Below are positions 42,772-58,966 of a DNA stretch of 64,000 nt, piece after piece. This DNA comes from Actinomycetota bacterium (GTDB taxonomy: Bacteria; Actinomycetota; UBA4738): the NCBI GenBank assembly GCA_035573915.1, contig DATLZQ010000002.1, positions 2,333 to 66,332 on the forward strand, given 5' to 3'. The notes below the pieces were generated by a model. The model was not told the DNA's origin, ran no database searches, and saw only the letters and a list, made by a program, of their open reading frames with translations. The position numbers and the translations under genes were made by a program. Each line of letters starts with the position of its first letter. The stretch's first letter is position 1.

Positions 42772-44535
42772 TCAGGCCTCGAGGGGGACGAGCTCGAAGC
42801 GGACCGTGTCCACCAGGCCCCGGTCCGTGATCTTGAGCTCGGGGATCACCGACAGGGCCAGGAACGACATGGCCATGAACGGGGAGGGCAGGGTGACGCC
42901 GAGGCCCCGGGCGGCCTCCTCCAGGTGCTCCACCGCCGCGGCCACCTCCTCGGCGGGCCGGTCCGAGAGGAGCCCCCCGATGGGGCAGCGCACCTCTCCT
43001 ACGACCTGCCCCCCGGCCACCGCCACCTGCCCCCCGCCCACCCGGGCCAGGTGGTTGACGGCGGCCGCCATGTCGGCCTCGTCCACCCCTACCACCACCA
43101 CGTTGTGGGCGTCGTGGGCGTGCGTGGAGGCCAGGGCGCCCCGGCGGAGCCCGAACCCCGTGACGAATCCCAAGCCCACCCGCCCCGTCCCCCGGTGGCG
43201 TTCGACCACCGCGATCTTGGCCAGGTCGCGGCCGGGGTCGGCCACGGCCTGCCCGTCCCGCCGGGCCGGCTCGGCCACCAGGGCCCGGGTCACGATCTGC
43301 CCCGGCTCCACCCCGATCACCCGGACCCGGCCGTCGGCCCGGACGGAGAAGGCCTCCGCCATGAGCTCGGGCACCCGGACGCTCCCCCGCATCCAGGCTG
43401 GCGCCTCCACCCTGGGCACGCCCAGGGCCACCCCGTCCCGCGCCACCAGCCGCCCTCGCTTCCAGACGAACCGTGGCCGGAAGGACGAGAGGTCCGGGAC
43501 CGCCACGATGTCTGCCAGGTACCCGGGGGCCACGGCCCCGTGTCGCCACAGGCGGTGGTAGCGGGCCGCGTTCAGGGTCCCCAGGGCCACGGCCACCTCG
43601 GGCGGGCAGCCCAGGGCCACGGCCCTTCGGACCACGTCGTTGACGTGCCCCTCCCGCAGGAGCTGGTCGGGCTCGCGGTCGTCGGTGCAGAGGAGGCAGT
43701 TGGTGGACCCGTACCGGAGGACCAGGGGGAGGAGGGCCTCGAGGTTCCGGGCGGCGGAGCCCTCCCGGATCATGATCCACATCCCCAGCCGGCGCTTCTC
43801 CAGGGCCTCCTCGAACGTGGTGCACTCGTGGTCGCTGCTCACCCCCCCCGCGAGGTAGGCGTTGAGGGCCTTGCCGGACAGCCCCGGGGCGTGGCCGTCC
43901 ACGTGACGGTCCCCGGCCCGGCGGGCGGCCTCGATCTTGGCCAGGATGGCCTCCTCCCCGGCCACGGCGTTGGGGTAGTCCATGAGCTCGGCCAGGCCCA
44001 GGGCCCGCCGCTCCTCGGCCAGGAACCGCTCGATGTCCGGGGCCTCCACCGTGGCCCCGTTGGACTCGAAGGGGCTGGCCGGGACGCAGGAGGAGACCAT
44101 CACGTAGTAGTCGAGGGGGACCCCCTCGGCCAGGCGGAGCAGGGCCTGCACCCCCTCCAGCCCGAAGACGTTAGCCACCTCGTGGGGGTCCAGGACGACC
44201 GTGGTCGTCCCCCAGGGGAGGACGGCCCGGGCGAACTCGTCCACCATGAGCTTGGTGGACTCGAGGTGCATGTGGCCGTCGATGAACCCGGGCAACAGGA
44301 CCAGGCCGGAGGCGTCCACCGTCTCTCGCCCCTCGTAGCGGCCGAGCCCAGCCACGTACTCCCCGGCCACGGCCACGTCGGCCTCAAGGAGCTCGCCCGT
44401 GAAGACCGAGAGGACCCGGGCGCCTTTGATGACCAGGTCGGCCGGCTCGTCCCCCCGGGCCACGGCCAGCCGATGGGCGAGGTCCCTCGTCTCCTCCGCG
44501 CCGCTCACGTCCCCACCGTCCTGGTTGGCAGACAT
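42772..44535 (-). CDS. ade: Adenine deaminase (amidohydrolase superfamily)
   Basis: ATG 44535 after GGGAGGGGA. 587 aa. FIDGHMHLESTKL metal-binding motif typical of Ade. Confidence 0.8.
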   Translation of the reverse strand: MSANQDGGDVSGAEETRDLAHRLAVARGDEPADLVIKGARVLSVFTGELLEADVAVAGEYVAGLGRYEGRETVDASGLVLLPGFIDGHMHLESTKLMVDEFARAVLPWGTTTVVLDPHEVANVFGLEGVQALLRLAEGVPLDYYVMVSSCVPASPFESNGATVEAPDIERFLAEERRALGLAELMDYPNAVAGEEAILAKIEAARRAGDRHVDGHAPGLSGKALNAYLAGGVSSDHECTTFEEALEKRRLGMWIMIREGSAARNLEALLPLVLRYGSTNCLLCTDDREPDQLLREGHVNDVVRRAVALGCPPEVAVALGTLNAARYHRLWRHGAVAPGYLADIVAVPDLSSFRPRFVWKRGRLVARDGVALGVPRVEAPAWMRGSVRVPELMAEAFSVRADGRVRVIGVEPGQIVTRALVAEPARRDGQAVADPGRDLAKIAVVERHRGTGRVGLGFVTGFGLRRGALASTHAHDAHNVVVVGVDEADMAAAVNHLARVGGGQVAVAGGQVVGEVRCPIGGLLSDRPAEEVAAAVEHLEEAARGLGVTLPSPFMAMSFLALSVIPELKITDRGLVDTVRFELVPLEA

Positions 44536-44570
44536 TATGCGCGATCCCCTCCCGCTGGGTGACGGCCGGC

Positions 44571-45566
44571 TCAGGCGTACCCGCCCATGGTCAGGGCCAT
44601 GAGCGCCTTGCCCGTGTGCAGCCGGTTCTCGGCCTCGTCGTAGACGACGGACTGGGGCCCGTCGATGACCTCGTCGGTGACCTCGTGGCCCCGGTCCGCG
44701 GGCAGGCAGTGCATGTACAGGGCGTCCGGCCTGGCCAGGGCCATGCGCCGGGCGTCGCAGATCCAGTCCCGGTGGCGCTCCGAGGTGGCCAGGGCCGCCC
44801 GCTCGTCGGCGAAGAGGTCCAGCCGCCCCCAGGACTTGGGGTAGACGACGTCGGCCTCCCGGAAGGCCTCGTCCATGTCGTGGACGACCGTCACGCCCCC
44901 CCCTCCCTCCTCCGCTGCCCGCCGGGCCTTGTCCATGGCCTCCGGCATGAGGTCCCAGCCCTCCGGGTAGGCGAGGACCACGTCCACCCCGAACCGGGGG
45001 AGCAGCATGGCTAGGCCCTGGGGGACGGACAGGGGCTTGGCGTAGGAGGGGGCGTAGGCCCAGGAGACGGCCACCCGCAGTCCGCGCAGGTCCTGTCCCC
45101 GCTTCTCCCGGATCGTCATGAGGTCGGCCAGGGTCTGGGTGGGGTGGTCCACGTCGCACTGGAGGTTGATCACGGGGACCTCGGCCCACCGGGCCACCTC
45201 CCGCATGTAGGCGTTGCCCTCGTAGGGCACGAGGTCGTGGCGGATGGCGATCCCGTGGCCGTAGCGGGAGAGGATGATCCCCATGTCCTTCGGGCTCTCC
45301 CCGTGGGCCACCTGCGTCTTCTCGGCGTCCAGGTAGTGGGCGTGGCCCCCCAGCTGGGTCATGCCGGCCTCGAAGGCGTTGCGGGTGCGGGTGGACTTGT
45401 CGAGGAACAGCATGAACAGGGTCTTGTCCGGGAGGAGCCGGTGGGGCTCCCCCCGGCGGAACTTCTCCTTGAGCTCGACGGAGACCGCCAGGGCCTCCTC
45501 GATCTCCTCCACCGTCCAGTCGAAGGTCTCGATGTAGTCCCGCCCGGCCAGGGCCCTGCGGTCCAC
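44571..45566 (-). CDS. ygeW: YgeW-like knotted carbamoyltransferase (OTCase/ATCase superfamily), substrate unknown
   Basis: Collinear similarity to E. coli YgeW (FLDKSTRTR, GNAYMREV, VINLQCDVDHPTQ, WAYAPSYAKPLSVPQG, ALYMHCLPAD). Start assigned to the GTG at 45566 after a perfect AGGAGGTGA SD; N-terminus uncertain. Confidence 0.75.
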   Translation of the reverse strand: MDRRALAGRDYIETFDWTVEEIEEALAVSVELKEKFRRGEPHRLLPDKTLFMLFLDKSTRTRNAFEAGMTQLGGHAHYLDAEKTQVAHGESPKDMGIILSRYGHGIAIRHDLVPYEGNAYMREVARWAEVPVINLQCDVDHPTQTLADLMTIREKRGQDLRGLRVAVSWAYAPSYAKPLSVPQGLAMLLPRFGVDVVLAYPEGWDLMPEAMDKARRAAEEGGGGVTVVHDMDEAFREADVVYPKSWGRLDLFADERAALATSERHRDWICDARRMALARPDALYMHCLPADRGHEVTDEVIDGPQSVVYDEAENRLHTGKALMALTMGGYA

Positions 45567-45631: not shown

Positions 45632-48031
45632 TCAGCCGTGGCGGGCCACGGCGCCCAGGCCCACGTACTCGGGGACGGGCCGCTGGCCCGGGACCCGCGG
45701 CGACGGCGGCCACGGCTGGCGGGGCCGGACGGGGCCCGACAGCCCCACCAGGTCGTCGGGGCGGACCGGGATCCGGTTCAGCTCTCGCCCCGTGGCCGCC
45801 CGCAGGGCGGCCACGACGGCCGCAGGGGCCACGATGGTGGAGGGCTCGCCCACGCCCTTGGCCCCGAACGGCACCCCCGGCTCCGGCTCCTCCACGAGCG
45901 ACGAGCGCACCGGCGGCATGTCCAGGATGGTGGGGATGAGGTAGTCGGTGAAGGACGCGTTGCGGATCCTCCCCCCGTCGAGCTGGAGCTCCTCCATGAG
46001 CGCCAGGCCCAGGCCCATGGCCGAGCCCCCTTCCACCTGGCCCTCGACCATCTGCGGGTTGATGGCCCGGCCCACGTCCTGGGCCACCGCCAGCTCCACC
46101 ACCCGCACCAGCCCCAGCTCCTCGTCCACCTCGACCACGGCCCGGGCCGCGGCGAAGGTGAACGTCACGTGGATGTCCCCCTGGCCCTCCTCGTCGAAGG
46201 TCGTGGTGGGCCGGTGGTGGTACTCGCGGGTGGCCTCGATGGGCTCCCCCAGGAACTCGGCCACCGGGGCCACGGGCACCCCGTCCGCCATGAGCTCCCC
46301 GTCGGCCACCGTGAGCTCGGCCCCCTCCAGGTCGGGCCGGGCCTGGCGGGCCCTGGCCACGAGCTCCTCCAGGACCGCCCGACAGGCCGCCTCCACCGCG
46401 CCCCCCGTCATCATGGTCTGGCGGGAGGCGGAGCTCGACCCAGCCGAGCCCACCAGCGTGTCCGGCGGGTGGAGGACCACGTCCTCCACCCCCAGGACCG
46501 TGCGGGCCACCTGGACCACCACGGTGTGGACCCCCTGCCCGACCTCGGCGGCGGCGGTGTGGACCTCCGCCACCGGCCGGCCGTCGGACCCCAGGGAGAG
46601 CCGGACCCGGGCCGTGGAGTAGTCGTCGAACCCCTCGCTGTAGCCCACGTTCTTGTAGCCTGCGGCGTAGCCCACCCCACGGCGGAGCCCCTCCCCTCGG
46701 CCCACGTTGCCCGCCACCCCGCCGGGCAGCGTGATGGGGTCCCGGCGGCCCCGGGCGTCCACCGGTTCGGGCTGAGGGAGGGGGGCGGCCCGCACCCGCT
46801 CCAGGAGCTCCCGCACTGGGGCCGTGCCCCGGATCACCTGTCCGGTGGGGAGGACCGACCCCGTGCCCACGGCGTTGCGCAGCCTGAGCTCCACGGGGTC
46901 CAGCCCCAGTTCCCGGGCCAGCTTGTCCATCTGGGCCTCGTGGGCGAAGGCGGCCTGGACGGCCCCGAACCCTCGCATGGCGCCGCAGGGCGGGTTGTTC
47001 GTGTAGACGGCCGTCCCCTCGATGAAGGCGTTGGGGACCTCGTACGGCCCGCAGGCGAAGGTGGAGGCGTTGGCGATCACGAACGGCGAGGAGGACGTGT
47101 AGGCCCCACCGTCGATGAGGAACCGGCAGCGCACCGCCACCAGCCGCCCGTCCCGGGTGGCCCCCGTCCGCATCCAGATCCGGGCCGGGTGGCGGTGGAC
47201 GTGGCCGAAGAAGGACTCCTCCCGCCCGTAGGACATCTTGACCGGTTTCCCGGTGTGGAGGGCCAGGAGGCAGGCGTGGATCTGCATATGGACGTCCTCC
47301 CGGGACCCGAAGGCCCCGCCCACCCCGGCCAGGTGCAGGCGGACCTTCTCCTCGGGGAGGCCCAGCACGGGGGCGATCTGCTGGCGGTCCACGTGGAGCC
47401 ACTGGGTGGCCACGTACAGGTCGACCCCGCCGTCCTCCGCCGGGACCGCCAGCCCAGCCTCCGGCCCCAGGGGAGCCTGGTCCTGCATGCCGGTCTCGTA
47501 GTAGCCCTCCACCCAGACGTCGGCCCGGGCGTCGGGGTGCCCGTGCACGATGCGCACGTGGCGCACCACGTTGCCGAACTCGTGGACCTGGGGGGCGCCA
47601 GGTTCGAGGGCCTCCTCCATGTCGGTCACGGCCGGCAGGGGCTCGTAGACGACCCGGATGCGCTCCGCGGCCCGGCGGGCCTGTTCAGGGTGCTCGGCCG
47701 CCACCAGGGCCACGGGCTCCCCGGCGTAGCGGACCCGGTCCCAGGCCAGGACCGGCTGGTCGGGGTAGTCGAGGCCGAAGGTCTTCCGCCCCGGGATGTC
47801 CGAAGCGAGCAGGACGGCGTGGACCCCCGGGGCCGCCAGGGCCTCCGAGATGTCCACCGAGACGATGCGGGCGCTGGGGTGGGGGCTACGGAGCGTGTGG
47901 CCCCAGAGCATGCCCTCCGCCCACAGGTCGCTCCCGTAGGCGAAGGCCCCCTTGACCTTGGGGACCCCGTCCACCCGCCGGACGCTCTCCCCGACCCCCA
48001 GCCGCGCCCGTTCGGCGACCCGCTCGCTCAC
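45632..48031 (-). CDS. Xanthine-dehydrogenase-family molybdopterin-binding large subunit (XdhB/CoxL-like)
   Basis: GTG 48031 after GGAGGGAGG overlaps the upstream stop (GTGA). About 800 aa with Ald_Xan_dh_C/C2 signatures (GGAFGSRED, TNNPPCGAMRGFG). Confidence 0.85.
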   Translation of the reverse strand: MSERVAERARLGVGESVRRVDGVPKVKGAFAYGSDLWAEGMLWGHTLRSPHPSARIVSVDISEALAAPGVHAVLLASDIPGRKTFGLDYPDQPVLAWDRVRYAGEPVALVAAEHPEQARRAAERIRVVYEPLPAVTDMEEALEPGAPQVHEFGNVVRHVRIVHGHPDARADVWVEGYYETGMQDQAPLGPEAGLAVPAEDGGVDLYVATQWLHVDRQQIAPVLGLPEEKVRLHLAGVGGAFGSREDVHMQIHACLLALHTGKPVKMSYGREESFFGHVHRHPARIWMRTGATRDGRLVAVRCRFLIDGGAYTSSSPFVIANASTFACGPYEVPNAFIEGTAVYTNNPPCGAMRGFGAVQAAFAHEAQMDKLARELGLDPVELRLRNAVGTGSVLPTGQVIRGTAPVRELLERVRAAPLPQPEPVDARGRRDPITLPGGVAGNVGRGEGLRRGVGYAAGYKNVGYSEGFDDYSTARVRLSLGSDGRPVAEVHTAAAEVGQGVHTVVVQVARTVLGVEDVVLHPPDTLVGSAGSSSASRQTMMTGGAVEAACRAVLEELVARARQARPDLEGAELTVADGELMADGVPVAPVAEFLGEPIEATREYHHRPTTTFDEEGQGDIHVTFTFAAARAVVEVDEELGLVRVVELAVAQDVGRAINPQMVEGQVEGGSAMGLGLALMEELQLDGGRIRNASFTDYLIPTILDMPPVRSSLVEEPEPGVPFGAKGVGEPSTIVAPAAVVAALRAATGRELNRIPVRPDDLVGLSGPVRPRQPWPPSPRVPGQRPVPEYVGLGAVARHG

Positions 48032-49430
48032 CCCGACCTCCCTCCGCCCCTCGGCCGGATCTCCAGCCCGGCGATGCGGCGGGCCACCCTCCGGCCCTCC
48101 TGGGCGATGGTCTCCTCGTCGGCCGTGACGAGGTGGCCGTCCCGGACCACCGGGCATCCCTCCACGAACAGGTGGCGGACCCGCCGGGGCGCGCAGTGGA
48201 GGAGGGCCGCCACCGGGTCGGTCTCGGCGCCCGCGAACTCCAGCCCCTCCACGGAGAACAGGGCCACGTCGGCCCGCTTCCCCGGCTCCAGCGAGCCGAG
48301 GTCGTCCCGGCCCAGGCAGGCCGCCCCGCCCCGGGTGGCCACCCGGAGGGCGGCCCGGGCGTCCAGGGCCCCGGGGTCGCCCCCGGCCCGGGCCACGAGC
48401 ATGCCCACGCGGGCCTCAGCCAGCAGGTGGCCGGCGTCGTTGGAGGCGGAGCCGTCCACCCCCAGGCCCACGGTGGCCCCCGCGTCCAGCAGGTCCCGGG
48501 CCCGGGCCACGCCCGCCCCCAGCCGGAGGTTGGAGGTGGGGCACCACGCCACCCCGGCCCCGGCCTCCGCGACCCTTCGGACGTCCCGCTCGTCCAGGTG
48601 CACGCAGTGGGCCAGCCAGACGTCGGGGCCCAGGAACCCGAGGTCCTCGAGGAGCTCAAGGGGCCGGCGCCCGAACCGCTCCCGGCAGTAGGCCTCCTCG
48701 TCCCGGGTCTCGGCGACGTGGGTGTGGAGGCGGACCCCCAGCCGCCGGGCCAGCTCCGCCGACTCCTTCATGAGGCGCTCCGTGGCCGAGAACGGCGAGC
48801 AGGGGGCCACCGCCACCCGGAGCATGGCCCCCGGGGACGGGTCGTGGTAGCGGGCCACGGCGGTCTCGGTCTCGGCCAGGACCCGGTCGGTGTCCTCCAC
48901 CACGGAGTCCGGAGGGAGACCGCCCCGGGAGGCCCCCAGGTCCATCGAGCCCCGGCAGGGGTGGAACCGCAGCCCCACCTGCCGGGCCGCGTCCATCTCG
49001 GCCTCCAGCAGGCCCGACACGCCGGGGGGGAAGACGTAGTGGTGGTCGGCGGTGGTGGCGCACCCCGAGAGGGCCAGCTCGGCCAGGCCCACCGCGGCCG
49101 CGGCCCGCTCCCACTCCGGGTCCAGCCCGGCCCACACCGGGTACAGCTCGGTGAGCCACCCGAACAGCCCCTTGGTCTGGGCCCGGACCCGGGTGAGGCA
49201 CTGGTAGAGGTGGTGGTGGGCGTTGACCAGGCCCGGGAGGGCCACCGTCCCCCGGCCGTCCACGTGTTCGGCCTCCTCCGCGCCCGGCGGCTGGCCCGTC
49301 CCCACCCAGGCCACCTGCCCGTCCCGCAGGAGGAGCGACCCGCCGGGGAGCTCGGTACCCCGGTCGTCCATGGTCACGACCACCTCGCACCCCTCGATGA
49401 GGACGGGCCGGGCCCGCGGTTCGCCCACGC

Positions 49431-49434
<4 letters not shown>
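48028..49434 (-). CDS. Amidohydrolase, COG0402-type (guanine/8-oxoguanine/cytosine deaminase-like)
   Basis: GTG overlaps the FeS-subunit stop (GTGA). LVNAHHHLYQ metal site, HTHVAET, GVDGSASND. Confidence 0.75.
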
Positions 49435-49895
<461 letters not shown>

Positions 49896-50792: not shown

Positions 50793-51817
50793 CAGAACTT
50801 CCCCCCGGCGAAGGCATCGATCATGGCCCGCACGTCGTCCCCCAGAGGGTAGAGGATGGGGCAGGTGCAGCCAGCCTCCACGTACTCCCGGACCTTGGCC
50901 CGGCACTCCTCCGCTGTTCCCGAGGCCGTGAGGAGCTGGACCACCTCGTCGGGGACCAGGCGCATGGCCCGCCGGATCTCCTCGGGGCCCGCAGGCCAGG
51001 TGAGGACCCTGCCGATCTCCTCGAGGAGGGAGGGGTCCACCCCGCTGGCCTTCATGATGTGGGGCTGCTGGCCCAGGTACTGGGTGACGAGCTCCCGGGC
51101 CCGGTCCAGGGCTACCTCCCGGTCCTCGTCCAGGGAGCACACCACGAGCTGGGGGCGGTCCAGGTCGTCCACGGTCCGGCCGGCGCGGGCCGCCCCCTCG
51201 GCCAGGGCGGCCAGGGCCTCCCGGTTGTAGGCCGGGCTCACCAGGTAATTGAGGACCACGCCGTCGGCCAGTTCCCCGGCCAGCTCCATCATCCGCATCC
51301 CCGTGGCCCCGATGTAGATGGGGACGTTGCGCGGCTCCCGCCGGCCGTGGACCACGTCGATCTCCACGTCCGTGAGGTGGACGAACTCCCCGTGGTACGT
51401 GACGCGCTCCATGGCCAGGAGGCGCCGGGTGGCCTCCACTGTCTCCCGCATGGCCTGGAGGGGGCGGCGACGGCGGATGCCCACCTTGGAGGCCAGGGGG
51501 TCCCACCAGGCCCCGATCCCCAGGATGACCCGGTCGGGGGCCAGGTCGTCCAGGGTGACGAAGGTGGCCGCCAGCAGGCCCACGTTGCGGGTCCAGCAGT
51601 TCACCACCCCCGAGCCCACCTTGAGCCGCTCGGTGACGGCGGCGTAGGCGGCCATGGGGACGGTGGCCTCCCGGACCAGGCGGCTCTCGGCCTGCCAGAC
51701 CGCCTCGAACCCCCGCTCCTCCGCGTAGCGGGCGTAGGCCATGCCGTCCCGGATGGGGTGCTTGTCCTGGAGGTACAGGGCCACCCGTCCCTGGCCGGTC
51801 ACCGCCACCTCAGCCAC
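50792..51817 (-). CDS. Luciferase-like monooxygenase (LLM) class oxidoreductase, probably F420-dependent, embedded in the hydroxylase operon
   Basis: 341 aa LLM TIM-barrel pattern (...GFEAVWQAE..., GIGAWWDP). GTG start at 51817 (an in-frame GTG 5 codons in is also possible). Confidence 0.7.
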
Positions 51818-53191: not shown

Positions 53192-54435
53192 CCCTGGACG
53201 ACCTCCCGGACCGCGGCCAGGGCCGGCGCCACCCGATGGGGCTGGCGGCCGGCGGCCCGGGCGGCCTCGGTGGCCGCCCGGACGTCCTTGAGGCCGCTTC
53301 CCGTGACCACGCAGAGGACCCGGTCCCCCGGCCCGACCAGGCCCTCCTCCCGGGCCCGCCGGAGCCCGGCCAGGCTGGCCGCGGCGGCCGGCTCGGCGAA
53401 GACCCCGTGGGCCGCGAGCTCCCGCTCGGCGGCCAGGATCTCCTCGTCGCTCACGGCGAGGAGCGCCCCGCCCGACTCCCGGACGGCCCGCAGGGCCTTG
53501 ATGCCGTTGCGGGGCTCGGCCACGGAGATGGAGTCGGCCACGGTGTGCGCCTCCCGGACCTCCCAGGACTCCGTCCCCCGCTGGAAGGCGTCCACCAGAG
53601 GGGATGCCCCCTGGGCCTGGGTCCCCAGGAGCCTGGGGAGCCGGTCGATGACCCCGAACCGCCGCATCTCCTTGAGGCCCTTCCAGACCCCGGCCACGGT
53701 GCAGCCGTCCCCCACCGAGACGCTCACCCAGTCCGGGAGGGCGTCGCCGAACTGCTCGGCGATCTCCAGCCCCGCCGTCTTCTTCCCCTCCACCGGGACG
53801 GGGTTGATGGCGGCGCTGCGGTTGTACCAGCCGAAGGCCGCGGCGGCCCGGCTGCACAGCTCGTAGGCGTCCCGGTAGCTCCCCTCCACCACGAACACGG
53901 TGGCCCCGAAGATGAGGAGCTGGGCCACCTTGGCCTCCGGGGCCACCTCGGGCACGAAGATGAAGGCCCGCAGCCCGAGCTGGGCGGCGAAGCCGGCCAG
54001 GGAGGAGGCGGCGTTGCCCGTGGAGGCGCAGCAGACGGTGTCGAACCCGAGCTCCCGGGCCTTGACGGCGGCCACGGAGGAGGCCCGGTCCTTGAACGAG
54101 GCCGTGGGGTTGCGCCCCTCGTCCTTGACCCAGAGCTCGGCCACCCCGAGGGAGCGGGCCAGCCCTGGGAGGGGGAAGACCGGCGTCCAGCCGACCGGGA
54201 CCGGAGGGACCTCCGCCCCGTCGCCGATGGGGAGCAGGTCCCGGTACCGCCACTGGGTGCGCTCGGGGTCGGCGGCCAGGCGCTCCGGCCCGAAGCCCTC
54301 CCGGGCGAGGGCGTCGTAGTCGTAGCGGACGTCCAGGATGCCGGTGGGCCCGCAGTGGGGGCAGGTGTAGAGGACCTCCCCCTCCGCATAGGACCGGTCG
54401 CACTTCACGCAGACCAGGGCCTGGACCTTGCCCAC
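53188..54435 (-). CDS. Threonine-synthase-like PLP enzyme (fold type II) with N-terminal zinc ribbon
   Basis: CVKCD...CPHCG ribbon. PLP-Lys motif NPTASFKDR. CASTGNAASSLA glycine loop. 415 aa. Confidence 0.75.
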   Translation of the reverse strand: MGKVQALVCVKCDRSYAEGEVLYTCPHCGPTGILDVRYDYDALAREGFGPERLAADPERTQWRYRDLLPIGDGAEVPPVPVGWTPVFPLPGLARSLGVAELWVKDEGRNPTASFKDRASSVAAVKARELGFDTVCCASTGNAASSLAGFAAQLGLRAFIFVPEVAPEAKVAQLLIFGATVFVVEGSYRDAYELCSRAAAAFGWYNRSAAINPVPVEGKKTAGLEIAEQFGDALPDWVSVSVGDGCTVAGVWKGLKEMRRFGVIDRLPRLLGTQAQGASPLVDAFQRGTESWEVREAHTVADSISVAEPRNGIKALRAVRESGGALLAVSDEEILAAERELAAHGVFAEPAAAASLAGLRRAREEGLVGPGDRVLCVVTGSGLKDVRAATEAARAAGRQPHRVAPALAAVREVVQG

Positions 54436-54452: not shown

Positions 54453-57083
54453 TCAGCCGCCGGGCTCGCGGCCCCGGGCGGCCCCGGCCAGCCTGGGGTG
54501 GGCGGCCCGGGCCGCCGGGGAGTCCCGCATGGGCAGCCGGGTCCGCCGGACCCCGTCGTAGGCGTACAGAGCCCCGGCCACGGCCGAGGCCGTTGGGACC
54601 AGGGCGATCTCCCCCACCCCCTTGGCCCCGTAGGGCCCCTCGGGCTGGGGCTCCTCCACGAAGATGCACTCCACTTTGGGCATGCCCGTGGGGGGGATGA
54701 TCCCGAGGGACTTGAGGGTGGTGGTCACGGGCACGGCCCCTTCCACCACGAACTCCTCGGTGAGCGCGTGGCCCAGGCCCATGTGGACAGCGCCTTCGAC
54801 CTGCCCCTCCAGGAGCGTGGGGTTGATGACCTTGCCCACGTCGTGGGCGGCCACCACCTTCTCGATCCTCCCCTCCTCGTCGAGGACGACCACCTGAGTG
54901 GCCCACCCGTAGGCGAAGTGGGTGGCCGCGCCGTCCGGGCCCTCGCCCGGCTTGTAGGTCCAGTCCACCTTGACCTCGCCGTAGAACTCCTGGCCCGCTA
55001 GGTCCTCGAGGCGCCTCCCGTCGAGGGCCGCCTTGAGCTTGCGGGCCGCCTCGATCACGGCCCGGCCCCCGAGGACCGTGGACCGTGAGGCCGTGGTCTG
55101 TCCCGTGTCGAGCTCTCGCGCCGTGTCCACCACCACCCGGACCCGGTCCGCAGTGAGGCCCAGCTCCTCGCAGGCGATCTGGAGGAGGGCCGTGTGCACC
55201 CCCTGGCCCATCTCGGTCCAGGAGTGCAGGAGGGTGACGGTCCCGTCCGCCTCGGGCCGAAGGATGGCCCGGCCGTACTCCACGATGCCGTTGCCCACGC
55301 CCGTGTTCTTGGCAGCGCAGGCGATCCCCACGGCCTTCCCTTCCGCCCGGGCCCGGTCGTAGGCCTCCTTCACGGCGAGGAGGGTCTTCTTGATCCCCAC
55401 CCCCGGGCCCAGCACCTGCCCGGTGCCGAACCGGTCCCCCACGTCCACGGCGTTGCGCCAGCGCATCTCCCAGGGGTCCAGCCCCACCTTCTCCGCGAGG
55501 ATGTCGATCATCCCCTCGATGGCGAAGTTGGCCTGGTTCGAGCCGAACCCCCGCATGGCCCCGGCCGGGGGGTTGTTCGTGTAGACGGCGTAGGCCTCCA
55601 CGTCCACGTTGGGCACCCGGTAGACGCTGCAGGCGTGTCCGGCGGCCCGCTCCAGGACCTTGTCGCCCACGCTGGCGTAGGCCCCGGTGTCCCCCACGAT
55701 CCGGGCCCGGACGGCCGCCAGACGCCCCTCCTCGTCGCAGCCCACCGTGTACTGGAGGGTCATGGGGTGGCGCTTGGTGTGGAAGCGGATGCTCTCCTCC
55801 CGGCTCAGCGTGATCCGGACCGGACGGCCGGTGCGGAGGGCCAGGAGGGAGGCGTGGCACTGGACGTTGAGGTCCTCCTTGGCCCCGAAGGCCCCCCCGT
55901 TCGACACCTGGGTGACCCGGACCTGCTGCGGGGGGACGCCGAGGAAGGAGGCGACCTGCCGACGGTCCTCCCACACCCCCTGGCCCTGGGAGTACACGTG
56001 GACCAGAACCCCCTCCTCGGGGTGGGGGACGGCCAGGGAGGACTCGGGCTCGAGGAAGGCGTGCTCGATGAACTGGGTCCGGAAGGTCTGGGTGGCCACG
56101 TGGGCGGCGGAGGCCAGGGCGGCGTCCACGTCGCCCCGCTTCACCTTGGACACCGAGAGGACGTTGCCGTTGGGGTGGAGCCTGGGGGCGTCGGGCCTCA
56201 TGGCCTCGAAGGGGTCGGTCACGGGCTCCAGGACCTCGTACTCCACCTCGACCAGGCGGGCGGCCTCCCGGGCCGCCTGACGGGTCTCGGCGGCCACCGC
56301 CGCCAGGACATCCCCCACGTAGGCCGTGACCTCCCCCTCCGCCACAAACTGCCGCCAGTCGCGGGTGATGAGCCCCTGGCTCCGCTCGCCCGGGACGTCC
56401 TTCCAGGTGACCACGGCCACCACCCCGGGGTAGGCCTCGGCCTTGGAGGTGTCGATCCGGAGGACTCGGGCCCGGGGGTGGTCGGAGAACCGGAGGGCCC
56501 CGTGGAGCATCCCCGGGACCTCCATGTCGTTGATGTAGGGCTTGTCGCCCAGGGCCAGCTCCTCCCCCTGGTACCGGGCGGTACGGGTCCCCACCCGGCC
56601 GCTCCGGTCGGGGGCCGGTAGGGGCTCGCCCCGCCGGGCCCGGGCGGCGAGCTCGATGGCGTCGATGATCTTCACGTAGCCCGTGCACCGGCAGAGGTTC
56701 CCGGCCAGCGCCCGGGCGATCTCCTCCCGGGAGGGCTCGGAGTTGCGGGCCAGGAGCGAGTGGGCCTTCATGACGATGCCCGGGGAGCAGAACCCGCACT
56801 GCGAGGCCCCGGCCACCACGAAACAGGTGGCCCACAGGGCCCGGTCCTCCGGGGAGAGGCCCTCCTGGGTGAGGACGCTCCGCCCGGCGGCGCGGGCCGC
56901 GGGCTGGGCGCAGGAGACCACGGCCTTCCCGTCCACGAGGACGGTGCAGGCCCCGCACGACCCCTCCGGCGCGCAGCCGTCCTTGACCGAGACCAGCCCG
57001 CAGGTCTCCCGGAGGAGCTCCAGGAGGGTCTGCCCCTCCCGGACCTCCACCGAGACGGGTCGTCCGTTCAGTGTGAACTCCAT
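54453..57083 (-). CDS. xdhD: Fused [2Fe-2S]-molybdopterin-binding molybdenum hydroxylase subunit (XdhD-like)
   Basis: ATG 57083 after GAGGAGGTGGG. N-terminal 2Fe-2S domain (CAPEGSCGACTV; QCGFCSPG...CRCTGY) fused to an about 720-aa Mo-cofactor domain (GGAFGAKED, TNNPPAGAMRGFG). Confidence 0.85.
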   Translation of the reverse strand: MEFTLNGRPVSVEVREGQTLLELLRETCGLVSVKDGCAPEGSCGACTVLVDGKAVVSCAQPAARAAGRSVLTQEGLSPEDRALWATCFVVAGASQCGFCSPGIVMKAHSLLARNSEPSREEIARALAGNLCRCTGYVKIIDAIELAARARRGEPLPAPDRSGRVGTRTARYQGEELALGDKPYINDMEVPGMLHGALRFSDHPRARVLRIDTSKAEAYPGVVAVVTWKDVPGERSQGLITRDWRQFVAEGEVTAYVGDVLAAVAAETRQAAREAARLVEVEYEVLEPVTDPFEAMRPDAPRLHPNGNVLSVSKVKRGDVDAALASAAHVATQTFRTQFIEHAFLEPESSLAVPHPEEGVLVHVYSQGQGVWEDRRQVASFLGVPPQQVRVTQVSNGGAFGAKEDLNVQCHASLLALRTGRPVRITLSREESIRFHTKRHPMTLQYTVGCDEEGRLAAVRARIVGDTGAYASVGDKVLERAAGHACSVYRVPNVDVEAYAVYTNNPPAGAMRGFGSNQANFAIEGMIDILAEKVGLDPWEMRWRNAVDVGDRFGTGQVLGPGVGIKKTLLAVKEAYDRARAEGKAVGIACAAKNTGVGNGIVEYGRAILRPEADGTVTLLHSWTEMGQGVHTALLQIACEELGLTADRVRVVVDTARELDTGQTTASRSTVLGGRAVIEAARKLKAALDGRRLEDLAGQEFYGEVKVDWTYKPGEGPDGAATHFAYGWATQVVVLDEEGRIEKVVAAHDVGKVINPTLLEGQVEGAVHMGLGHALTEEFVVEGAVPVTTTLKSLGIIPPTGMPKVECIFVEEPQPEGPYGAKGVGEIALVPTASAVAGALYAYDGVRRTRLPMRDSPAARAAHPRLAGAARGREPGG

Positions 57084-57096: not shown

Positions 57097-58317
57097 TCAT
57101 GGCCCTCGGTGGCCGGCGGCGGCCAGGTAGGCTTCGGGGAAGGCGGCGTACCAGGCGGCCGCCACCGGCAGGTGCTCGATTGGGCACTGGTCGTCCGGGC
57201 TGTGGGCGTAGACCTCGTTGGCCGGGCCGAACCCGATGGTCGGGATCCCCAGGCGCCCCGCGCTGGACACCCCGTTCGTGGAGAACACCCACCGGCCCAC
57301 CTGGGGCGTGCGGCCCAGGGCCCGGCGGGCCGTCTCCACCCCCGCCTGCACGGCCGGGTGGTCCTCGGGGAGGACCCAGGTGGGGAAGTACTTGTCGATG
57401 GAGAGGGTGAGGCCTGTGTAGGCCGTGCCCTCGTAGCGGAGGAGCTCCACGGTGGCCTCGCCCGACTGGACGGCGGGGAGGGCCTCCAGCTCGGCCCGGG
57501 CGGACTCCACGGTCTCCCCGATGGTGAGCCGCCGGTCAAGGTAGATCGTGCAGCCGTCGGGCACGGCGTTGAGGGAGGGGGTCTGGACCTCCACTTTGGA
57601 GACCACGACCGTCCCCTTGCCAAGGAAGGGGTCGGCCGCGAGGCGCTCGTTCAGGGCCTCCACCTGCTGGATGATGGGGGCCATCCGGTAGACGGCGTTC
57701 ACCCCCCGCTCCGGGGCGGAGGCGTGGGCCGCCCGGCCCCTTGTGTGGATGGCGAACTCCGCCCGCCCTCGGTGCCCGCGGTACACGTCCAGGTCCGTGG
57801 CCTCCCCCAACACCACCACGTCCGGGCGTGGGATCCCGTTGGTGAGGAGGTACTCGAGGGCCAGCCCGTCGCAGTCCTCCTCCTGGACCGTTCCCACCAC
57901 GTAGAGGGTGAACGCGGAGGCGTCCACACCCAGGCGCTTGAGCAGGGCTCCCCCGTAGACCATGGAGGCGGTGGCGGCCTTGTTGTCCGAGGCCCCCCGC
58001 CCGTAGAGGATCCCGCCCTTGACCTCCGGGGTGAAGGGGTGGGTCCTCCAGGAGGCGGGGTCCCCCACGTCCACCGTGTCGATGTGGCTGTCGAAGACGA
58101 TGCGGACGGGGCCGTCCCCGATCCGTCCCACCACGCTCCCGAAGGGGTCCACGGTGACCTCGTCGTAGCCCAGGGCGGTCATCTCGTCCCCGATCCGCTG
58201 CACCACCTCGCGCTCCCGCCTGGACAGGCTGGGGGTGGCGATGAGGTCCTCGAAGAAGCGGCCCATCCGCTCCTCGAGCCGGCGGGCCTCCTCCAGGAAC
58301 CGCTCGTCGGTCTTCAC
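57097..58317 (-). CDS. ygeY: YgeY-like M20/DapE-ArgE family metallohydrolase
   Basis: GTG 58317 after GGGAGGGAGG. Collinear with E. coli YgeY (HIDTV, GRGASDNK, VQEEDCDGL, GEATDLDVYRGHRGR, SAPERG). Confidence 0.85.
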   Translation of the reverse strand: MKTDERFLEEARRLEERMGRFFEDLIATPSLSRREREVVQRIGDEMTALGYDEVTVDPFGSVVGRIGDGPVRIVFDSHIDTVDVGDPASWRTHPFTPEVKGGILYGRGASDNKAATASMVYGGALLKRLGVDASAFTLYVVGTVQEEDCDGLALEYLLTNGIPRPDVVVLGEATDLDVYRGHRGRAEFAIHTRGRAAHASAPERGVNAVYRMAPIIQQVEALNERLAADPFLGKGTVVVSKVEVQTPSLNAVPDGCTIYLDRRLTIGETVESARAELEALPAVQSGEATVELLRYEGTAYTGLTLSIDKYFPTWVLPEDHPAVQAGVETARRALGRTPQVGRWVFSTNGVSSAGRLGIPTIGFGPANEVYAHSPDDQCPIEHLPVAAAWYAAFPEAYLAAAGHRGP

Positions 58318-58966
58318 GGTCCTCCCTCCCCGGGCCGGGGCTCGGCCCGATTCGACTCGTCCAGGTAGTTGTAGATCGTGAAGCGGCTCACCCCGAGCCG
58401 GGCCGCCACCCGCTCCACCGCCTTCTTGATGAGGAAGGCTCCCCGTTCGTCCAGGTATCGGACCACCTGCTGCTTCTGACGCCGCGACATCTCCTCGACG
58501 GGCACCCCCACGGCGTCGGCCGCCGCGTCCAGCATGCGGTCCAGGGCGTCCCCCAGGTGGTCGGTGGGGGGCTGGGGCTCGGCGCCGTCCGGCTCGGCCA
58601 GAGAGGCCAGGAGGCGGGCGGCCCGGGAGAGGGCCGCGGTGTCCACCTCGATGGCCACGGCCAGCCCGTCCCCGGGCTCCGGGCCGGGGAGGGGGAGCAC
58701 GCTGATCCTGGTCCCCCCGCCTACGGACCGGTTGACCACCGGCTCCCCAAAGGCGAGCAGAGGGAGGACCGGGTCGGCTCCACCGCGACCCCTGGCCCTG
58801 GCCGGCCGGCCCCACGAGTCCACTCGCCGCGGAGGGCGGAGCTCGTAGAGGCTGACCCGGAACGGAGGCCCCAGCGTGCGGGCCAGGGCTCGGCAGAAGT
58901 CCAGGGCCGGGGAAAGGTCGTCCTCGGGCCGGCTCGACGGTTCCACGCGTCCCTCCTCGACCATTG
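58314..58966 (-). CDS. Transcriptional regulator with C-terminal HTH (YheO/PucR-like)
   Basis: C-terminal ...VERVAARLGVSRFTIYNYL. ATG 58966 lacks SD and lies in an AT-rich patch. Stop overlaps ygeY start. The longer ORF (to 59120) has an implausible Pro/Cys-rich lead. Confidence 0.5.

Follow-up and report, generated by a model that had tools for sequence, protein, structure and literature searches.

An actinobacterial purine-catabolic gene cluster and a predicted F420-type variant of reductive urate degradation

Introduction

What pathway is encoded by a compact set of purine-related genes in an uncultured, high-GC actinobacterium, and how closely does it follow the E. coli ygeW-xdhD region that it resembles? 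The locus in question lies on contig DATLZQ010000002.1 (assembly GCA_035573915.1), within a 64,000-nucleotide stretch that was analyzed as a whole and is referred to here as the window. An initial sequence-only reading regarded the pathway behind such genes as biochemically undefined, a view that is now outdated. Two 2025 studies demonstrated urate degradation via 2,8-dioxopurine (yanthine) by these genes, and the reductive route, known from gut bacteria, has been reconstituted (PMC12507026; bioRxiv 10.1101/2025.04.24.650524) and discussed in a commentary (PMC12990295). Taken together with the gene content of the locus, this pathway leads us to read the cluster as a variant in which a luciferase-like (LLM-class) oxidoreductase stands in for YgfK and other pyridoxal phosphate (PLP) enzymes stand in for YgeX. 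We favor, with moderate confidence, a model in which the operon funnels purines to urate and then uses a reductive 2,8-dioxopurine route with F420-dependent ring reduction. The roles proposed for the upper part rest on family membership, while those for the lower part are drawn from the 2025 biochemistry on homologues; we infer every substrate, the electron donor of the XdhAC-type enzyme, and how the final steps follow one another.

Organization of the cluster

The roughly 16-kb purine cluster proposed earlier is real. It is made up of 12 tightly packed genes called on the basis of GC3, all on the minus strand from 42772 to approximately 58946, with intergenic gaps of at most 65 nt. Coupling of the genes through overlaps was likewise borne out, as there are five overlapping junctions: 4 nt each for regulator/YgeY, ThrC-like/SsnA, FeS/amidohydrolase, and amidohydrolase/PucD, and 1 nt for LLM/FAD. 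Family calls were judged against curated NCBIfam cutoffs, with Pfam scans of the called genes alongside. For comparison, 80 loci from other species (~1.3 Mb in total) were retrieved with the LLM protein as query.

At the head of the cluster is the expected HTH regulator, a 210-aa protein with an HTH_22 domain (58314..58946, minus strand; PF13309, 87.7 bits). Its longest open reading frame reaches 59120, and the GTG start was chosen from the rise in GC3, the GAGGAGG ribosome-binding site that precedes it, and a 210-aa gene call in locus L001. The last 4 nt of this gene overlap the start of ygeY, and the regulator is kept upstream of ygeY in locus L003. The YgeY-family M20 hydrolase (57097..58317, minus strand), 47% identical to E. 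coli YgeY, passes its own models as had been claimed (NF009555, 495.8 bits against a cutoff of 321; TIGR03526, 487 against 321.5). With YgeY passing its model, an SsnA-like protein, a carbamoyltransferase with YgeW motifs, and molybdenum hydroxylases, the sequences support a cluster for purine catabolism whose gene content is related to that of the E. coli ygeW-xdhD region. The list of E. coli counterparts drawn up earlier holds in part: YgeY stands, SsnA falls just below its cutoff, the YgeW candidate fails its models while keeping the motifs, and XdhD and YgfM do not hold. Synteny does not hold either, as the gene order differs from that of E. coli and the sole shared adjacency is that of the ring reductase and ssnA.

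From purine bases to urate

The last gene of the operon encodes the predicted adenine deaminase (42772..44508, minus strand; TIGR01178, 589.7 bits against 472.5; Pfam Adenine_deam_C), which would convert adenine to hypoxanthine. Oxidation of hypoxanthine to xanthine and then urate would fall to a split xanthine dehydrogenase, whose three subunit genes are present as the earlier reading had it. The PucD-type molybdopterin subunit (45632..48031, minus strand; TIGR03196, 862.2 bits against 783.65) contains Ald_Xan_dh_C and MoCoBD_1/2 domains in Pfam, and the 2Fe-2S small subunit (49431..49895, minus strand; PF01799, PF00111) scores 161 to 193 bits with XdhC/PucE-type models, under their equivalog cutoffs. 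The XdhB/PucC-like FAD-binding subunit (49908..50792, minus strand; PF00941, PF03450) reaches 155.9 bits against a cutoff of 310 with the XdhB model. Its assignment as YgfM-like was rejected, as TIGR03312 gives 50.8 bits against 241.5 and the XdhB model scores higher. A separate YgfM-like subunit had been claimed in addition, but this single XdhB-like gene is the only FAD subunit gene in the cluster, so the fused molybdenum enzyme described below has no separate YgfM partner.

Between the FeS and Mo subunit genes, with 4-nt overlaps on both sides, lies the second COG0402 amidohydrolase that had been noted (48028..49434, minus strand). It belongs to the 8-oxoguanine-deaminase family (NF006055, 628.4 bits against 532), and its position is conserved in loci L003, L007, L014, and L018. 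This enzyme may bring oxidized guanine bases into the urate pool, supplying it from 8-oxoguanine or guanine-type bases.

Removal of the C6 oxygen and ring reduction

The first reductive step is assigned to a FAD-less fused 2Fe-2S and molybdopterin hydroxylase of the XdhAC type (876 aa; 54453..57083, minus strand), which passes TIGR03311 with 1007 bits against 830. Pfam finds Fer2_2, Ald_Xan_dh_C, and MoCoBD_1/2 domains and no FAD domain. The earlier description of an XdhD-like fused FeS-Mo subunit was right about the fusion; the likeness to XdhD was rejected (TIGR03313, 271 bits against 1102). By analogy with DOPDH, this enzyme would act as a urate to 2,8-dioxopurine reductase that removes the C6 oxygen of urate. 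Glu606 of XdhD has been suggested to orient urate (Li et al. 2025), and in the fused protein the corresponding position lies within a loop that cannot be aligned. Homologues of at least 52% identity adjoin the SsnA-LLM pair in about 32 of the 80 related loci.

The gene next to ssnA, 30 nt away on the side of the FAD subunit gene, encodes a 338-aa Mer-like LLM-class oxidoreductase (50792..51808, minus strand; PF00296, 239.9 bits). We propose from its context that this protein is an F420H2-dependent 2,8-dioxopurine reductase substituting for YgfK/UacX, in which a hydride from F420H2 would dearomatize the ring. An alternative for this protein is that it is an FMN-dependent monooxygenase or reductase using flavin and oxygen on the purine ring, in the manner of RutA on uracil, with F420 uninvolved. 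The luciferase-like fold is indeed common to FMN monooxygenases, the protein lies under the cutoff of every curated F420 family, and a few homologues come from metagenome-assembled genomes labeled as phyla not known for F420, for example Pseudomonadota, Clostridia, and cyanobacteria. However, its best NCBIfam matches are F420-dependent families throughout, with Mer at 1e-50 against E-values of about 1e-10 or worse for FMN-dependent families. The best sequence matches in the PDB are Mer, FGD, and Adf, with 140 bits for Mer and 29 bits for the first FMN enzyme. The AF2 model (pLDDT 85) indicates an F420-type fold: the top 30 Foldseek matches are F420 enzymes only, and Mer with bound F420 gives a TM-score of 0.85. 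Gene neighborhoods agree, as cofC, cofD, cofE, and npdG lie beside the gene in Chloroflexota and in both cyanobacterial loci. Of the 13 Chloroflexota loci whose flanks are complete, 12 have cofD, 11 cofC, 9 cofE, and 10 npdG (NADPH:F420 oxidoreductase) flanking the LLM gene. We therefore consider an FMN enzyme highly improbable. F420 biosynthesis genes are absent from the 64-kb window. The F420-type protein passes no curated F420 family cutoff and so falls into a subfamily without a name; the substrate proposed for it is guessed from the surrounding genes. At least 571 stretches taken from species-representative genomes encode homologues that are 70 to 85% identical.

The F420-dependent reduction that we favor would be unfavorable by itself, and hydrolytic ring opening of dihydro-2,8-dioxopurine by the adjacent SsnA-like amidohydrolase would draw it forward. 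This role is assigned by analogy: YgfK activity is detectable only in coupling to SsnA, and ygfK and ssnA are co-localized in many organisms (Li et al. 2025). The SsnA-like protein (450 aa; 51839..53191, minus strand), whose start was corrected to a GTG that overlaps the ThrC-like stop, is 35% identical to E. coli SsnA across 436 aa. The claim of an SsnA orthologue is partly upheld, since SsnA is the best family for this gene by a wide margin (runner-up, 161 bits) while the cutoffs are missed (NF005540, 400 bits against 444; TIGR03314, 385 against 455.5). In most Actinomycetota loci the SsnA-like gene is directly upstream of the LLM gene. The sequence-only reading had mentioned F420 enzymes, as an oddity of the organism, but did not place the F420-type protein in the pathway.

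The selenium question

It is possible that the cluster is an orthologue of the selenium-dependent molybdenum hydroxylase system of E. coli and Firmicutes, with SelD, YqeB, and YqeC installing a labile selenium cofactor that both molybdenum enzymes need. Such a reading is about the cofactor and is compatible with the F420 urate pathway. In its favor, the fused enzyme passes an equivalog named "selenium-dependent xanthine dehydrogenase," the name that an identical 876-aa protein carries at NCBI. DOPDH of C. sporogenes from a selD mutant was inactive once purified, and SelD with YqeB/YqeC was found in all gut strains with the cluster (bioRxiv 10.1101/2025.04.24.650524). The co-occurrence of these families with YqeB/YqeC, invoked earlier, is indeed published, the YqeB phylogenetic profile ranking YgeY, SsnA, and YgeW high (PMC2276186). 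Nevertheless, the TIGR03311 name stems from genomic context in Firmicutes and not from a selenium sequence signature. In E. coli and E. faecalis the selenium markers share a cluster with genes of the pathway. Here, tblastn with E. coli SelD, YqeB, YqeC, and MocA queries gave no match in the 64-kb window. Among the 80 related loci there was no match to SelD and no credible YqeB; the Chloroflexota "YqeB" matches score as generic XdhC-family maturation factors rather than TIGR03309, and yqeC or mocA matches of 27 to 31% occur in two loci. The selenium link is thus unsupported in the window and in these loci, and we regard it as doubtful.

The lower pathway

After ring opening, a hydantoinase encoded elsewhere would yield 2,3-diureidopropionate. 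HyuA, carbamate kinase, and YgeX orthologues are absent from the cluster, which leaves gaps in the lower pathway as drawn. Of the flanking genes that had been named for a search together with the selenium markers, a dihydropyrimidinase/hydantoinase was found in a separate operon (8158..9534, plus strand; TIGR02033, 583 bits against 393). It is 43% identical to E. coli HyuA across 465 aa and is the only HyuA-like gene of the window; 11 of the 80 loci have a homologue no more than 10 kb from the LLM gene. Its product is a possible shared hydantoin-ring opener.

One ureido group of 2,3-diureidopropionate would then be removed by phosphorolysis to carbamoyl phosphate, a role assigned by analogy to the short YgeW-like carbamoyltransferase (331 aa; 44571..45566, minus strand). 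Its best PDB match is E. coli YgeW (3Q98, 226.8 bits, compared with 221 for ornithine carbamoyltransferase, OTC). The protein fails the YgeW models (250 bits against 453; 237 against 500), contrary to the claim of a YgeW orthologue, as well as the OTC models (254 against 306), but it keeps the YgeW motifs NLQCDxDHPTQ, SWAYxPSYxKPLSVPQG, YPKSW, and HCLPAD. YgeW is 396 aa long, and the cluster protein lacks three insertions found in it. YgeY, in the role it has in the urate pathway (PMC12507026), would hydrolyze the remaining ureido group.

In place of YgeX, a ThrC-like enzyme, a nearby CysK-fold protein (PALP2), or both would release pyruvate and ammonia from the C3 amino acid. The ThrC-like fold-type-II PLP enzyme is present as claimed (53188..54435, minus strand; PRK08197, 317.7 bits against 303; PALP, 263 bits) and matches solved ThrC structures with about 225 bits. 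Its translation has an N-terminal CxxC...CxxC zinc ribbon and an SFKDR lysine. The gene is conserved in L003 (80%) and, at about 50%, in Chloroflexota and cyanobacterial loci adjoining PALP2 and SsnA, and its product may be part of the YgeX replacement. PALP2 is a divergent CysK/CBS-fold PLP enzyme encoded outside the cluster (502 aa; 35877..37385, plus strand), with an invariant K112 and an STGNY loop; both proteins retain their PLP lysines and substrate loops. The AF2 model of PALP2 (pLDDT 84.8) gives cysteine synthase, CBS, and beta-cyanoalanine synthase as top Foldseek matches, and its relatives carry the source names "cysteine synthase A" and "pyridoxal-phosphate dependent enzyme." PALP2 is found within 10 kb of the LLM gene in 40 of the 80 loci, and in L003 it directly adjoins the adenine deaminase gene. 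It probably belongs to the pathway, as a candidate C-N lyase for 2,3-diaminopropionate or a mono-ureido derivative. Beside it is a xanthine/uracil-permease family transporter (34307..35800, plus strand; PF00860, 94.3 bits), 33% identical to E. coli GhxQ across 456 aa, which probably imports purine bases.

Conservation across species

The families and their linkage, conserved across species, are directly observed. Within 10 kb of the LLM gene, SsnA is found in 50 of 80 loci, an XdhAC-like or other molybdenum enzyme in 43, and the short YgeW-like transferase in 34; there are loci in which the LLM gene directly adjoins both SsnA and the molybdenum enzyme. Actinomycetota loci with full flanks contain SsnA in 19 of 24 cases and a molybdenum enzyme in 21.

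This conservation bears on a more conventional explanation, ordinary purine salvage or oxidative catabolism. Both molybdenum enzymes would then be xanthine or purine dehydrogenases working in the oxidative direction, and deamination of bases would be the function of the SsnA-like and the 8-oxoguanine-deaminase-like protein. The ThrC-like protein, the carbamoyltransferase, and the M20 hydrolase would be amino acid enzymes unrelated to the rest, and the LLM protein would have another substrate. Each protein alone does carry a generic superfamily annotation, SsnA and the carbamoyltransferase miss their specific cutoffs, and the organism is probably aerobic while the known pathway is reported from anaerobes and facultative anaerobes only (PMC12990295). 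However, Pfam and NCBIfam scans of the called genes found no uricase, HIU hydrolase, allantoinase, or allantoicase; YgeY passes its specific model, and no other family comes close to SsnA for the gene assigned to it. Moreover, the set of SsnA, LLM, molybdenum enzyme, transferase, and PALP2 recurs in Actinomycetota, Chloroflexota, and other phyla, which would be unexpected of unrelated neighbors, and L003 keeps the ThrC-like gene and YgeY in the same positions. We consider ordinary purine catabolism unlikely and retain the reductive urate route.

The end of this route is less uniform. Of the 80 related loci, just 4 contain YgeY and 10 the ThrC-like gene, and most Actinomycetota relatives instead encode a second PALP enzyme together with an ATCase-like transferase and a carbamate kinase. 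The terminal steps are thus clearly not the same in all variants, and they may depart from those of E. coli.

Comparison with known systems

An F420 variant is not without precedent. For Chloroflexota, an F420-dependent yanthine reductase has been proposed from gene neighborhoods alone, and the same study lists SsnA in Actinomycetota (Li et al. 2025), making the present combination in a GC-rich organism with F420 enzymes less unusual than first claimed. Relative to the E. coli ygeW-xdhD region, the gene content is related and the order differs, the reductase-ssnA adjacency excepted. The ring-reductase role is filled by YgfK in E. coli and by UacX in Clostridioides, and is predicted to be filled here by the Mer-like LLM protein. 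Compared with the known urate pathway, the predicted replacements are this protein for YgfK and two other PLP enzymes for YgeX.

Composition of the purine gene cluster

The window comes from an uncultured Actinomycetota MAG, where it lies on a contig 82,263 bp long. The G+C content of the window, 68-77%, crowds raw ORF lists with shadow ORFs, and genes were called by third-position GC (GC3). This call gives twelve co-directional genes on the minus strand, running from 58946 down to 42772 with intergenic gaps of no more than 65 nt and five overlapping junctions, four of 4 nt and one of 1 nt. The sequence-only reading had described a purine-hydroxylase cluster syntenic with the E. coli ygeW-ygeY-ssnA-ygfM-xdhD locus, and its coordinates and general picture stand on the basis of the gene call and the family scores, which are given here as bits obtained vs the curated NCBIfam cutoff. 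The cluster opens with an HTH_22 regulator (58314-58946; PF13309, 87.7 bits), whose start is most likely 58946, where an RBS and the GC3 rise are found, in agreement with an independent 210-aa gene call. This is followed by a YgeY M20 hydrolase (57097-58317) that passes both of its models (496 vs 321 for NF009555 and 487 vs 321.5 for TIGR03526) and by a fused 2Fe-2S/Mo hydroxylase (54453-57083). With its start set at 57083 the latter has 876 aa and agrees exactly with the NCBI protein, both in length and in sequence; it passes TIGR03311 (1007 vs 830) and fails the XdhD model TIGR03313 (271 vs 1102), so that the XdhD claimed earlier is not found. Next come a ThrC-like PLP enzyme with an N-terminal zinc ribbon (53188-54435; PRK08197, 318 vs 303) and an SsnA-like amidohydrolase (51839-53191). 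The ssnA start was set at 53191, a GTG overlapping the preceding stop; moving it 39 nt upstream to this GTGA overlap left the SsnA score at 400 bits both ways. With either start codon the protein stays somewhat below the SsnA cutoffs (400 vs 444 for NF005540 and 385 vs 455.5 for TIGR03314), and the next best family scores 161 bits.

The gene beside ssnA, which the sequence-only reading did not place, encodes a luciferase-family oxidoreductase resembling Mer (LLM, 50792-51808). Its start was set at 51808, giving a 338-aa protein identical to P0001, and its top matches are all F420 families, none over cutoff. Downstream lie an FAD subunit (49908-50792; PF00941 and PF03450) and a 2Fe-2S subunit (49431-49895; PF01799 and PF00111), both of which pass Pfam cutoffs and remain below equivalog cutoffs. 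The FAD subunit is XdhB-like (156 bits) and is the only one in the cluster; at 51 vs 241 on the YgfM-type model, it leaves no separate YgfM-like subunit of the kind proposed before. Then follow an amidohydrolase of the 8-oxoguanine-deaminase family (48028-49434; 628 vs 532, passes) and PucD (45632-48031; 862 vs 784, passes). All parts of a PucABCDE/XdhABC-type xanthine dehydrogenase, the Mo subunit and separate FAD and 2Fe-2S subunits, are thus found in the cluster. The last two genes encode a 331-aa carbamoyltransferase (44571-45566), which fails both the OTC (254 vs 306) and YgeW (250 vs 453) models, and an adenine deaminase (42772-44508; 590 vs 472, passes).

A consensus scan for promoters and terminators gave nothing over shuffle background, and an Rfam scan returned tRNAs only, with no purine, MoCo or guanidine riboswitch. 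The four tRNA genes are on the plus strand at 16513-16683 (Ser-GCT and Arg-ACG, adjacent), 23803-23892 (Ser-CGA) and 24199-24286 (Ser-GGA); ARAGORN finds all four and Rfam, at gathering score, three.

Fit to the reductive urate pathway

The pathway to which such genes belong had been called biochemically undefined, a statement that is now out of date. In 2025 the E. coli and C. difficile enzymes were reconstituted (Li et al. 2025, PMC12507026), and genetics and isotope tracing were carried out in C. sporogenes (Liu et al., bioRxiv 10.1101/2025.04.24.650524); a commentary has also appeared (PMC12990295). According to this work, urate is reduced to 2,8-dioxopurine by XdhD-YgfM or XdhAC, and the ring is then dearomatised by YgfK or, in some organisms, UacX. 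SsnA opens the ring to give ureidomethylhydantoin, which HyuA converts to 2,3-diureidopropionate. One ureido group is removed through phosphorolysis by YgeW, with YqeA regaining ATP from the carbamoyl phosphate, and the other is hydrolysed by YgeY to leave 2,3-diaminopropionate, from which YgeX forms pyruvate and ammonia. The pathway is described as selenium-dependent and as confined to anaerobes, obligate or facultative, most of them from the gut.

By function, the locus is most likely a 2,8-dioxopurine pathway joined to an upstream purine-to-urate module, with substrates that we infer by analogy. When its proteins are held against the published components, the Mo enzyme and YgeY qualify, SsnA is narrowly under cutoff, and YgfK/UacX, YgeW, YgeX and YqeA fail. 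With the E. coli pathway proteins as tblastn queries against the window, YgeY is matched at 47% identity, YgeW at 39%, SsnA at 35% and XdhD at 26%, while YgeX finds only the ThrC-like gene (28% over 140 aa), which also scores poorly on the DAP ammonia-lyase model NF006058 (52 vs 276). HyuA matches at 43% a dihydropyrimidinase at 8158-9534 (TIGR02033 pass), the sole HyuA-like gene in the window, which lies in a different, pyrimidine-type operon; there is none in the cluster. YgfK, YqeA, YqeB, YqeC and MocA have no tblastn match in the 64-kb window. YgfK also has none in 80 related loci from other species, discussed below, and no PF01180 protein is encoded among the cluster genes. Carbamate kinase, without a match in the window, is found in about 15 related Actinomycetota loci.

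The fused Mo enzyme and the selenium question

Public annotation names the fused Mo enzyme a "selenium-dependent xanthine dehydrogenase" because it passes TIGR03311, and this name derives from the Firmicutes context. The set of selenium markers consists of SelD together with YqeB, YqeC and YgfJ/MocA (Haft & Self 2008). None of SelD, YqeB (TIGR03309), YqeC (TIGR03172) and YgfJ/MocA (TIGR03310) was found in the 64-kb window by tblastn and family scans, and tblastn found no SelD in the 80 related loci, about 1.3 Mb of sequence. For YqeB, tblastn had suggested 16 of these loci, whose proteins proved by NCBIfam to be generic XdhC-family maturation factors and not TIGR03309 members. The selenium link drawn in the sequence-only reading is weakened by these absences, and the locus makes one ask whether selenium is required at all by XdhAC-type enzymes outside Firmicutes. 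To our knowledge, there is no established sequence signature for a selenium cofactor in the Mo subunit. The XDH active-site motif GGxFGxKE was considered as a discriminator; it is present in both Mo subunits of the window and separates nothing. Glu606 of XdhD, which has been proposed to orient urate (Li et al., PMC12507026), falls in a gapped variable loop when XdhD, XdhA, both Mo subunits of the window and eight homologues are aligned with MAFFT, which makes the position uninformative.

A candidate F420-dependent ring reductase

The F420-type LLM sits where, in known systems, the ring reductase gene adjoins ssnA. It belongs to PF00296 (240 bits), and among solved structures its closest sequence match is Mer (140 bits), then FGD and Adf, with FMN enzymes at about 29 bits. 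The AF2 model (mean pLDDT 85) gives a similar picture, as the best 30 Foldseek matches are all F420 enzymes and Mer with bound F420 is first (TM 0.85). Judged by its scores, LLM is an unnamed subfamily that falls in no curated F420 family (Mer, 170 vs 276; TIGR03841, 134 vs 214; TIGR04024, 121 vs 345). Its predicted dependence on F420 is well supported by the sequence and Foldseek matches and by the cof and npdG neighbours of its relatives; the window itself contains no cof or fbi genes. Ring reduction has to be coupled to SsnA hydrolysis (Li et al., PMC12507026), and from this coupling and the position of LLM beside SsnA its substrate would be 2,8-dioxopurine. Alternatively, LLM could be a methylene-folate reductase linked to two nearby 5-formyl-THF cyclo-ligase-like genes. 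This possibility was dropped, as those genes are missing from all 80 related loci.

The window holds a second F420 LLM at 4832-5827 (TIGR03842, 430 vs 295), only 27% identical to the first. It is part of an operon on the plus strand, 1035-12229, that resembles reductive pyrimidine degradation with an F420 enzyme in the place of PydA and that parallels the purine cluster. Besides this LLM, the operon encodes an ABC transporter, a CN-hydrolase (beta-ureidopropionase-like), a class-III aminotransferase, the dihydropyrimidinase (583 vs 393), a methylmalonate-semialdehyde dehydrogenase (637 vs 448) and an adenosine deaminase.

The carbamoyltransferase and the PLP enzymes

The carbamoyltransferase is not a member of the YgeW family by score (237 vs 500 for TIGR03316 and 250 vs 453 for NF005538) and lacks the three YgeW insertions and the C-terminal tail. 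It does keep the motifs that tell YgeW from OTCases, NLQCDxDHPTQ, SWAYxPSYxKPLSVPQG, YPKSW (DxxxSMG in OTCases) and HCLPAD, and its best solved relative is YgeW (3Q98), narrowly over OTC. With the motifs kept and the models failed, it is treated as YgeW-like in function and outside the YgeW equivalog; this putative enzyme may work as YgeW does.

A further PLP enzyme, PALP2, is a 502-aa protein of the CysK/CBS fold encoded at 35877-37385 on the plus strand, outside the cluster and beside a purine permease gene. It is present in 40 of the 80 related loci and directly adjoins the adenine deaminase gene in L003, the closest relative. Across phyla PALP2 is about 70% conserved; public annotation names it "pyridoxal-phosphate dependent enzyme" or "cysteine synthase A". 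Its CysK-like core is extended by roughly 100 aa at both the N and the C terminus, Lys112 within an AHK motif is invariant, and the STGNY loop is of the CysK type. In its AF2 model (pLDDT 84.8), the core is matched by cysteine synthase, CBS and beta-cyanoalanine synthase. In the ThrC-like protein the SFKDR lysine is retained, and the zinc ribbon is as in archaeal-type ThrC and cysteate synthase. Enzymes of the CysK/CBS family carry out beta-elimination or beta-replacement on beta-substituted alanines, and both 2,3-diaminopropionate and albizziin are beta-substituted alanines. For this reason, PALP2, the ThrC-like enzyme or both would replace YgeX.

In the window, PALP2 and the adenine deaminase gene are split by a 5.4-kb stretch of lower G+C (0.68) on the minus strand, 37404-42610. 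It encodes a ykoF-type thiamine-binding protein, a 979-aa ORF that fuses an ECF T component (CbiQ) to two ABC ATPase domains, one ORF without a family match, and the two 5-formyl-THF-cyclo-ligase-like proteins, one of them fused to a GntR HTH. A weak AbiEii/AAA_21 match had suggested a defence island at 37.4-40.6 kb; this region is accounted for by the thiamine-binding protein and the fused ECF transporter. On the other side of the cluster and divergent from it, at 59181-63999 on the plus strand, a 473-aa metallophosphoesterase is translationally coupled to a SagB-type dehydrogenase (TIGR03605, 131 vs 78). These are followed by a DUF1918 protein, a glyoxalase/Fos-like protein, a nicotinamidase-like isochorismatase and a PGA_cap protein weakly matching the lasso-peptide epimerase MslH, and the region may be a peptide-modification locus.

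Related loci in other genomes

LLM is extremely well conserved, its best 120 metagenomic matches being 81-100% identical. A scan of one genome per species found relatives of at least 70% identity in at least 571 stretches, the best 80 of which (LLM 70-85% identical) were fetched with 10-kb flanks. Their sources are Actinomycetota (Thermoleophilia, Gaiellaceae, Acidimicrobiia, Nitriliruptorales, Streptosporangiaceae, Nocardioides and Microthrixaceae), Chloroflexota, and, in a few cases, MAGs assigned by their label to Acidobacteriota, cyanobacteria or another phylum. The window proteins were run against these 80 loci by tblastn, with matches counted within 10 kb of LLM. SsnA is present in 50 loci, and in those of Actinomycetota it ends a few bases ahead of the LLM start. 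A fused Mo enzyme is found in 43, a short YgeW-like transferase in 34, the FAD and FeS subunits in about 40 and PucD in 25. About 32 of the fused Mo enzymes are at least 52% identical to the XdhAC type of the window; the remainder are 31-37% identical and best matched by the XdhD/XdhA models. In six loci (L012, L032, L043, L053, L054 and L071), this LLM and SsnA are accompanied by a fused Mo enzyme closest to the XdhD and XdhA models, that of L071 scoring 697 bits on TIGR03313 and 686 on XdhA, both under cutoff. By tblastn, four of the six (L012, L032, L043 and L071) have a YgfM-like FAD subunit, and four (L012, L053, L054 and L071) have an XdhC-family maturation gene. Through such loci, both known types of 2,8-dioxopurine-forming enzyme are combined with the F420 reductase.

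All ORFs of the loci were also clustered de novo, and the neighbours obtained differ by phylum. In the 13 Chloroflexota loci with full flanks, LLM is flanked by cofD (12 of 13), cofC (11), an FbiB-type nitroreductase domain (11), npdG, the NADPH:F420 oxidoreductase (10), and cofE (9). The same F420 module of npdG, cofE, FbiB-type nitroreductase domain, cofC and cofD surrounds LLM in the two cyanobacterial loci, and in both groups it lies downstream of the ThrC-like gene, PALP2 and SsnA (L046, L053, L054, L059, L061, L066, L076, L081 and others). It is possible that the whole LLM unit could bring its own cofactor-tail biosynthesis when moving between genomes.

Most Actinomycetota loci, counted over the 24 with full flanks, contain three genes missing from the window: a 450-aa PLP enzyme, PALP3 (19 of 24), an ATCase-like carbamoyltransferase (15; TIGR00670, 244 vs 237) and carbamate kinase (11). 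PALP2, PALP3, the ATCase-like transferase and carbamate kinase occur as a module in L007, L009, L014-L018, L029, L030, L050, L083 and others. The presence of this module suggests that these relatives release both ureido groups in the form of carbamoyl phosphate, with a possible gain of two ATP. YgeY (4 of 80 loci) and the ThrC-like gene (10 of 80) are minority components, and the ThrC-like gene is found where PALP3 is missing. Since these two are rare and the transferase and kinase module is common, the window represents a "hydrolytic" sub-variant using YgeY; judged by gene content, most relatives appear able to shed both ureido groups by phosphorolysis.

Implications

We propose, tentatively and as a possibility that still invites more doubt than belief, that soil and sediment Actinomycetota, Chloroflexota and some other phyla may have a reductive urate pathway that is driven by F420H2, selenium-free and oxygen-tolerant. 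In this pathway the Mer-like LLM would be the 2,8-dioxopurine reductase, and unrecognised PLP lyases of the CysK and ThrC folds would replace YgeX and, in most relatives, HyuA and YgeY too. If true, the pathway would no longer belong to gut-type anaerobes alone, as had been supposed, and would extend to major environmental phyla, and coenzyme F420 would gain a new central catabolic role. Taken with its relatives, the locus suggests that the pathway is far more widely distributed in the environment. The redox cofactor would here be a different one, F420, and the last steps look rewired: two PLP enzymes are new, and many relatives have a pair of carbamoyltransferases together with a carbamate kinase. 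The locus also gives a specific, well-conserved candidate for an F420-dependent 2,8-dioxopurine reductase.

The F420 substitution was foreshadowed for Chloroflexota in one sentence (Li et al. 2025, PMC12507026), and no further description or test of it was found in the literature searched. The central idea, as a whole a prediction, is partly anticipated. As far as the literature searched shows, the links to PALP2, PALP3/ThrC-like enzymes, the ATCase-like transferase, carbamate kinase and cofCDE/npdG are first described here. Three points are worth noting: the distribution is broad, the gut-type selenium machinery is likely not needed, and the PLP components are new. In public annotation these genes go under the names "selenium-dependent xanthine dehydrogenase", "methylenetetrahydromethanopterin reductase", "cysteine synthase" and "threonine synthase", each of which probably misleads here.

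Comparison with known systems

The E. coli system (PMC12507026) shares with the window a YgeY orthologue (47% identical and over model cutoff), an SsnA-like amidohydrolase (35%) whose gene adjoins that of the ring reductase, a carbamoyltransferase with YgeW motifs (39%), a Mo hydroxylase and purine-feeding enzymes nearby. However, the Mo enzyme of the window is of the TIGR03311/XdhAC type, 26% identical to XdhD and without a YgfM partner. The window has the F420-type LLM in the place of YgfK, and it has the ThrC-like and CysK-fold PLP enzymes but no YgeX. HyuA and YqeA are missing from the cluster, as are yqeB, yqeC and mocA from the window, the regulator is HTH_22 rather than the sigma-54 YgeV, and the gene order differs.

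The cluster of C. sporogenes and C. difficile likewise has a fused 2Fe-2S/Mo enzyme of about 850-880 aa that is FAD-less and without a dedicated flavin subunit. A principle common to both is that different lineages can use different ring reductases (YgfK or UacX). The window enzyme is placed in the C. sporogenes DOPDH family by TIGR03311, and placements of the Mo domain and transferase in clades are approximations from HMM scores. In contrast to the window, where none of these was seen, the clostridial enzymes need SelD and the strains have YqeB/YqeC. The clostridial reductase is a PydA-like FMN enzyme rather than an LLM, and one ureido group is probably lost here by YgeW-like phosphorolysis, not by UacY hydrolysis.

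A further precedent is the putative F420-dependent luciferase-family yanthine reductase near SsnA in Chloroflexota (Li et al. 2025, PMC12507026; Fig. 3c, Discussion), again a PF00296 protein beside SsnA replacing YgfK/UacX. That proposal is a neighbourhood observation in Chloroflexota only, made without sequence analysis or assay. The LLMs of the Chloroflexota loci recovered here are 70-77% identical to that of the window. Their fused Mo proteins, best matched by the XdhD/XdhA models, are only 31-37% identical to the window's, whereas the window LLM is paired with an XdhAC-type enzyme, and the Chloroflexota loci lack both YgeY and the YgeW-like transferase of the window.

Finally, Mer is the closest relative of LLM in both solved structure and sequence, at 28% identity. 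In the Mer reaction, a carbon that is bonded to ring nitrogens receives a hydride from F420H2, a chemistry that resembles the reduction of a purine C=N bond. LLM is nevertheless well under the Mer equivalog cutoffs (160 vs 349, as well as 170 vs 276), and it is found inside a purine cluster, in bacteria without methanopterin metabolism.
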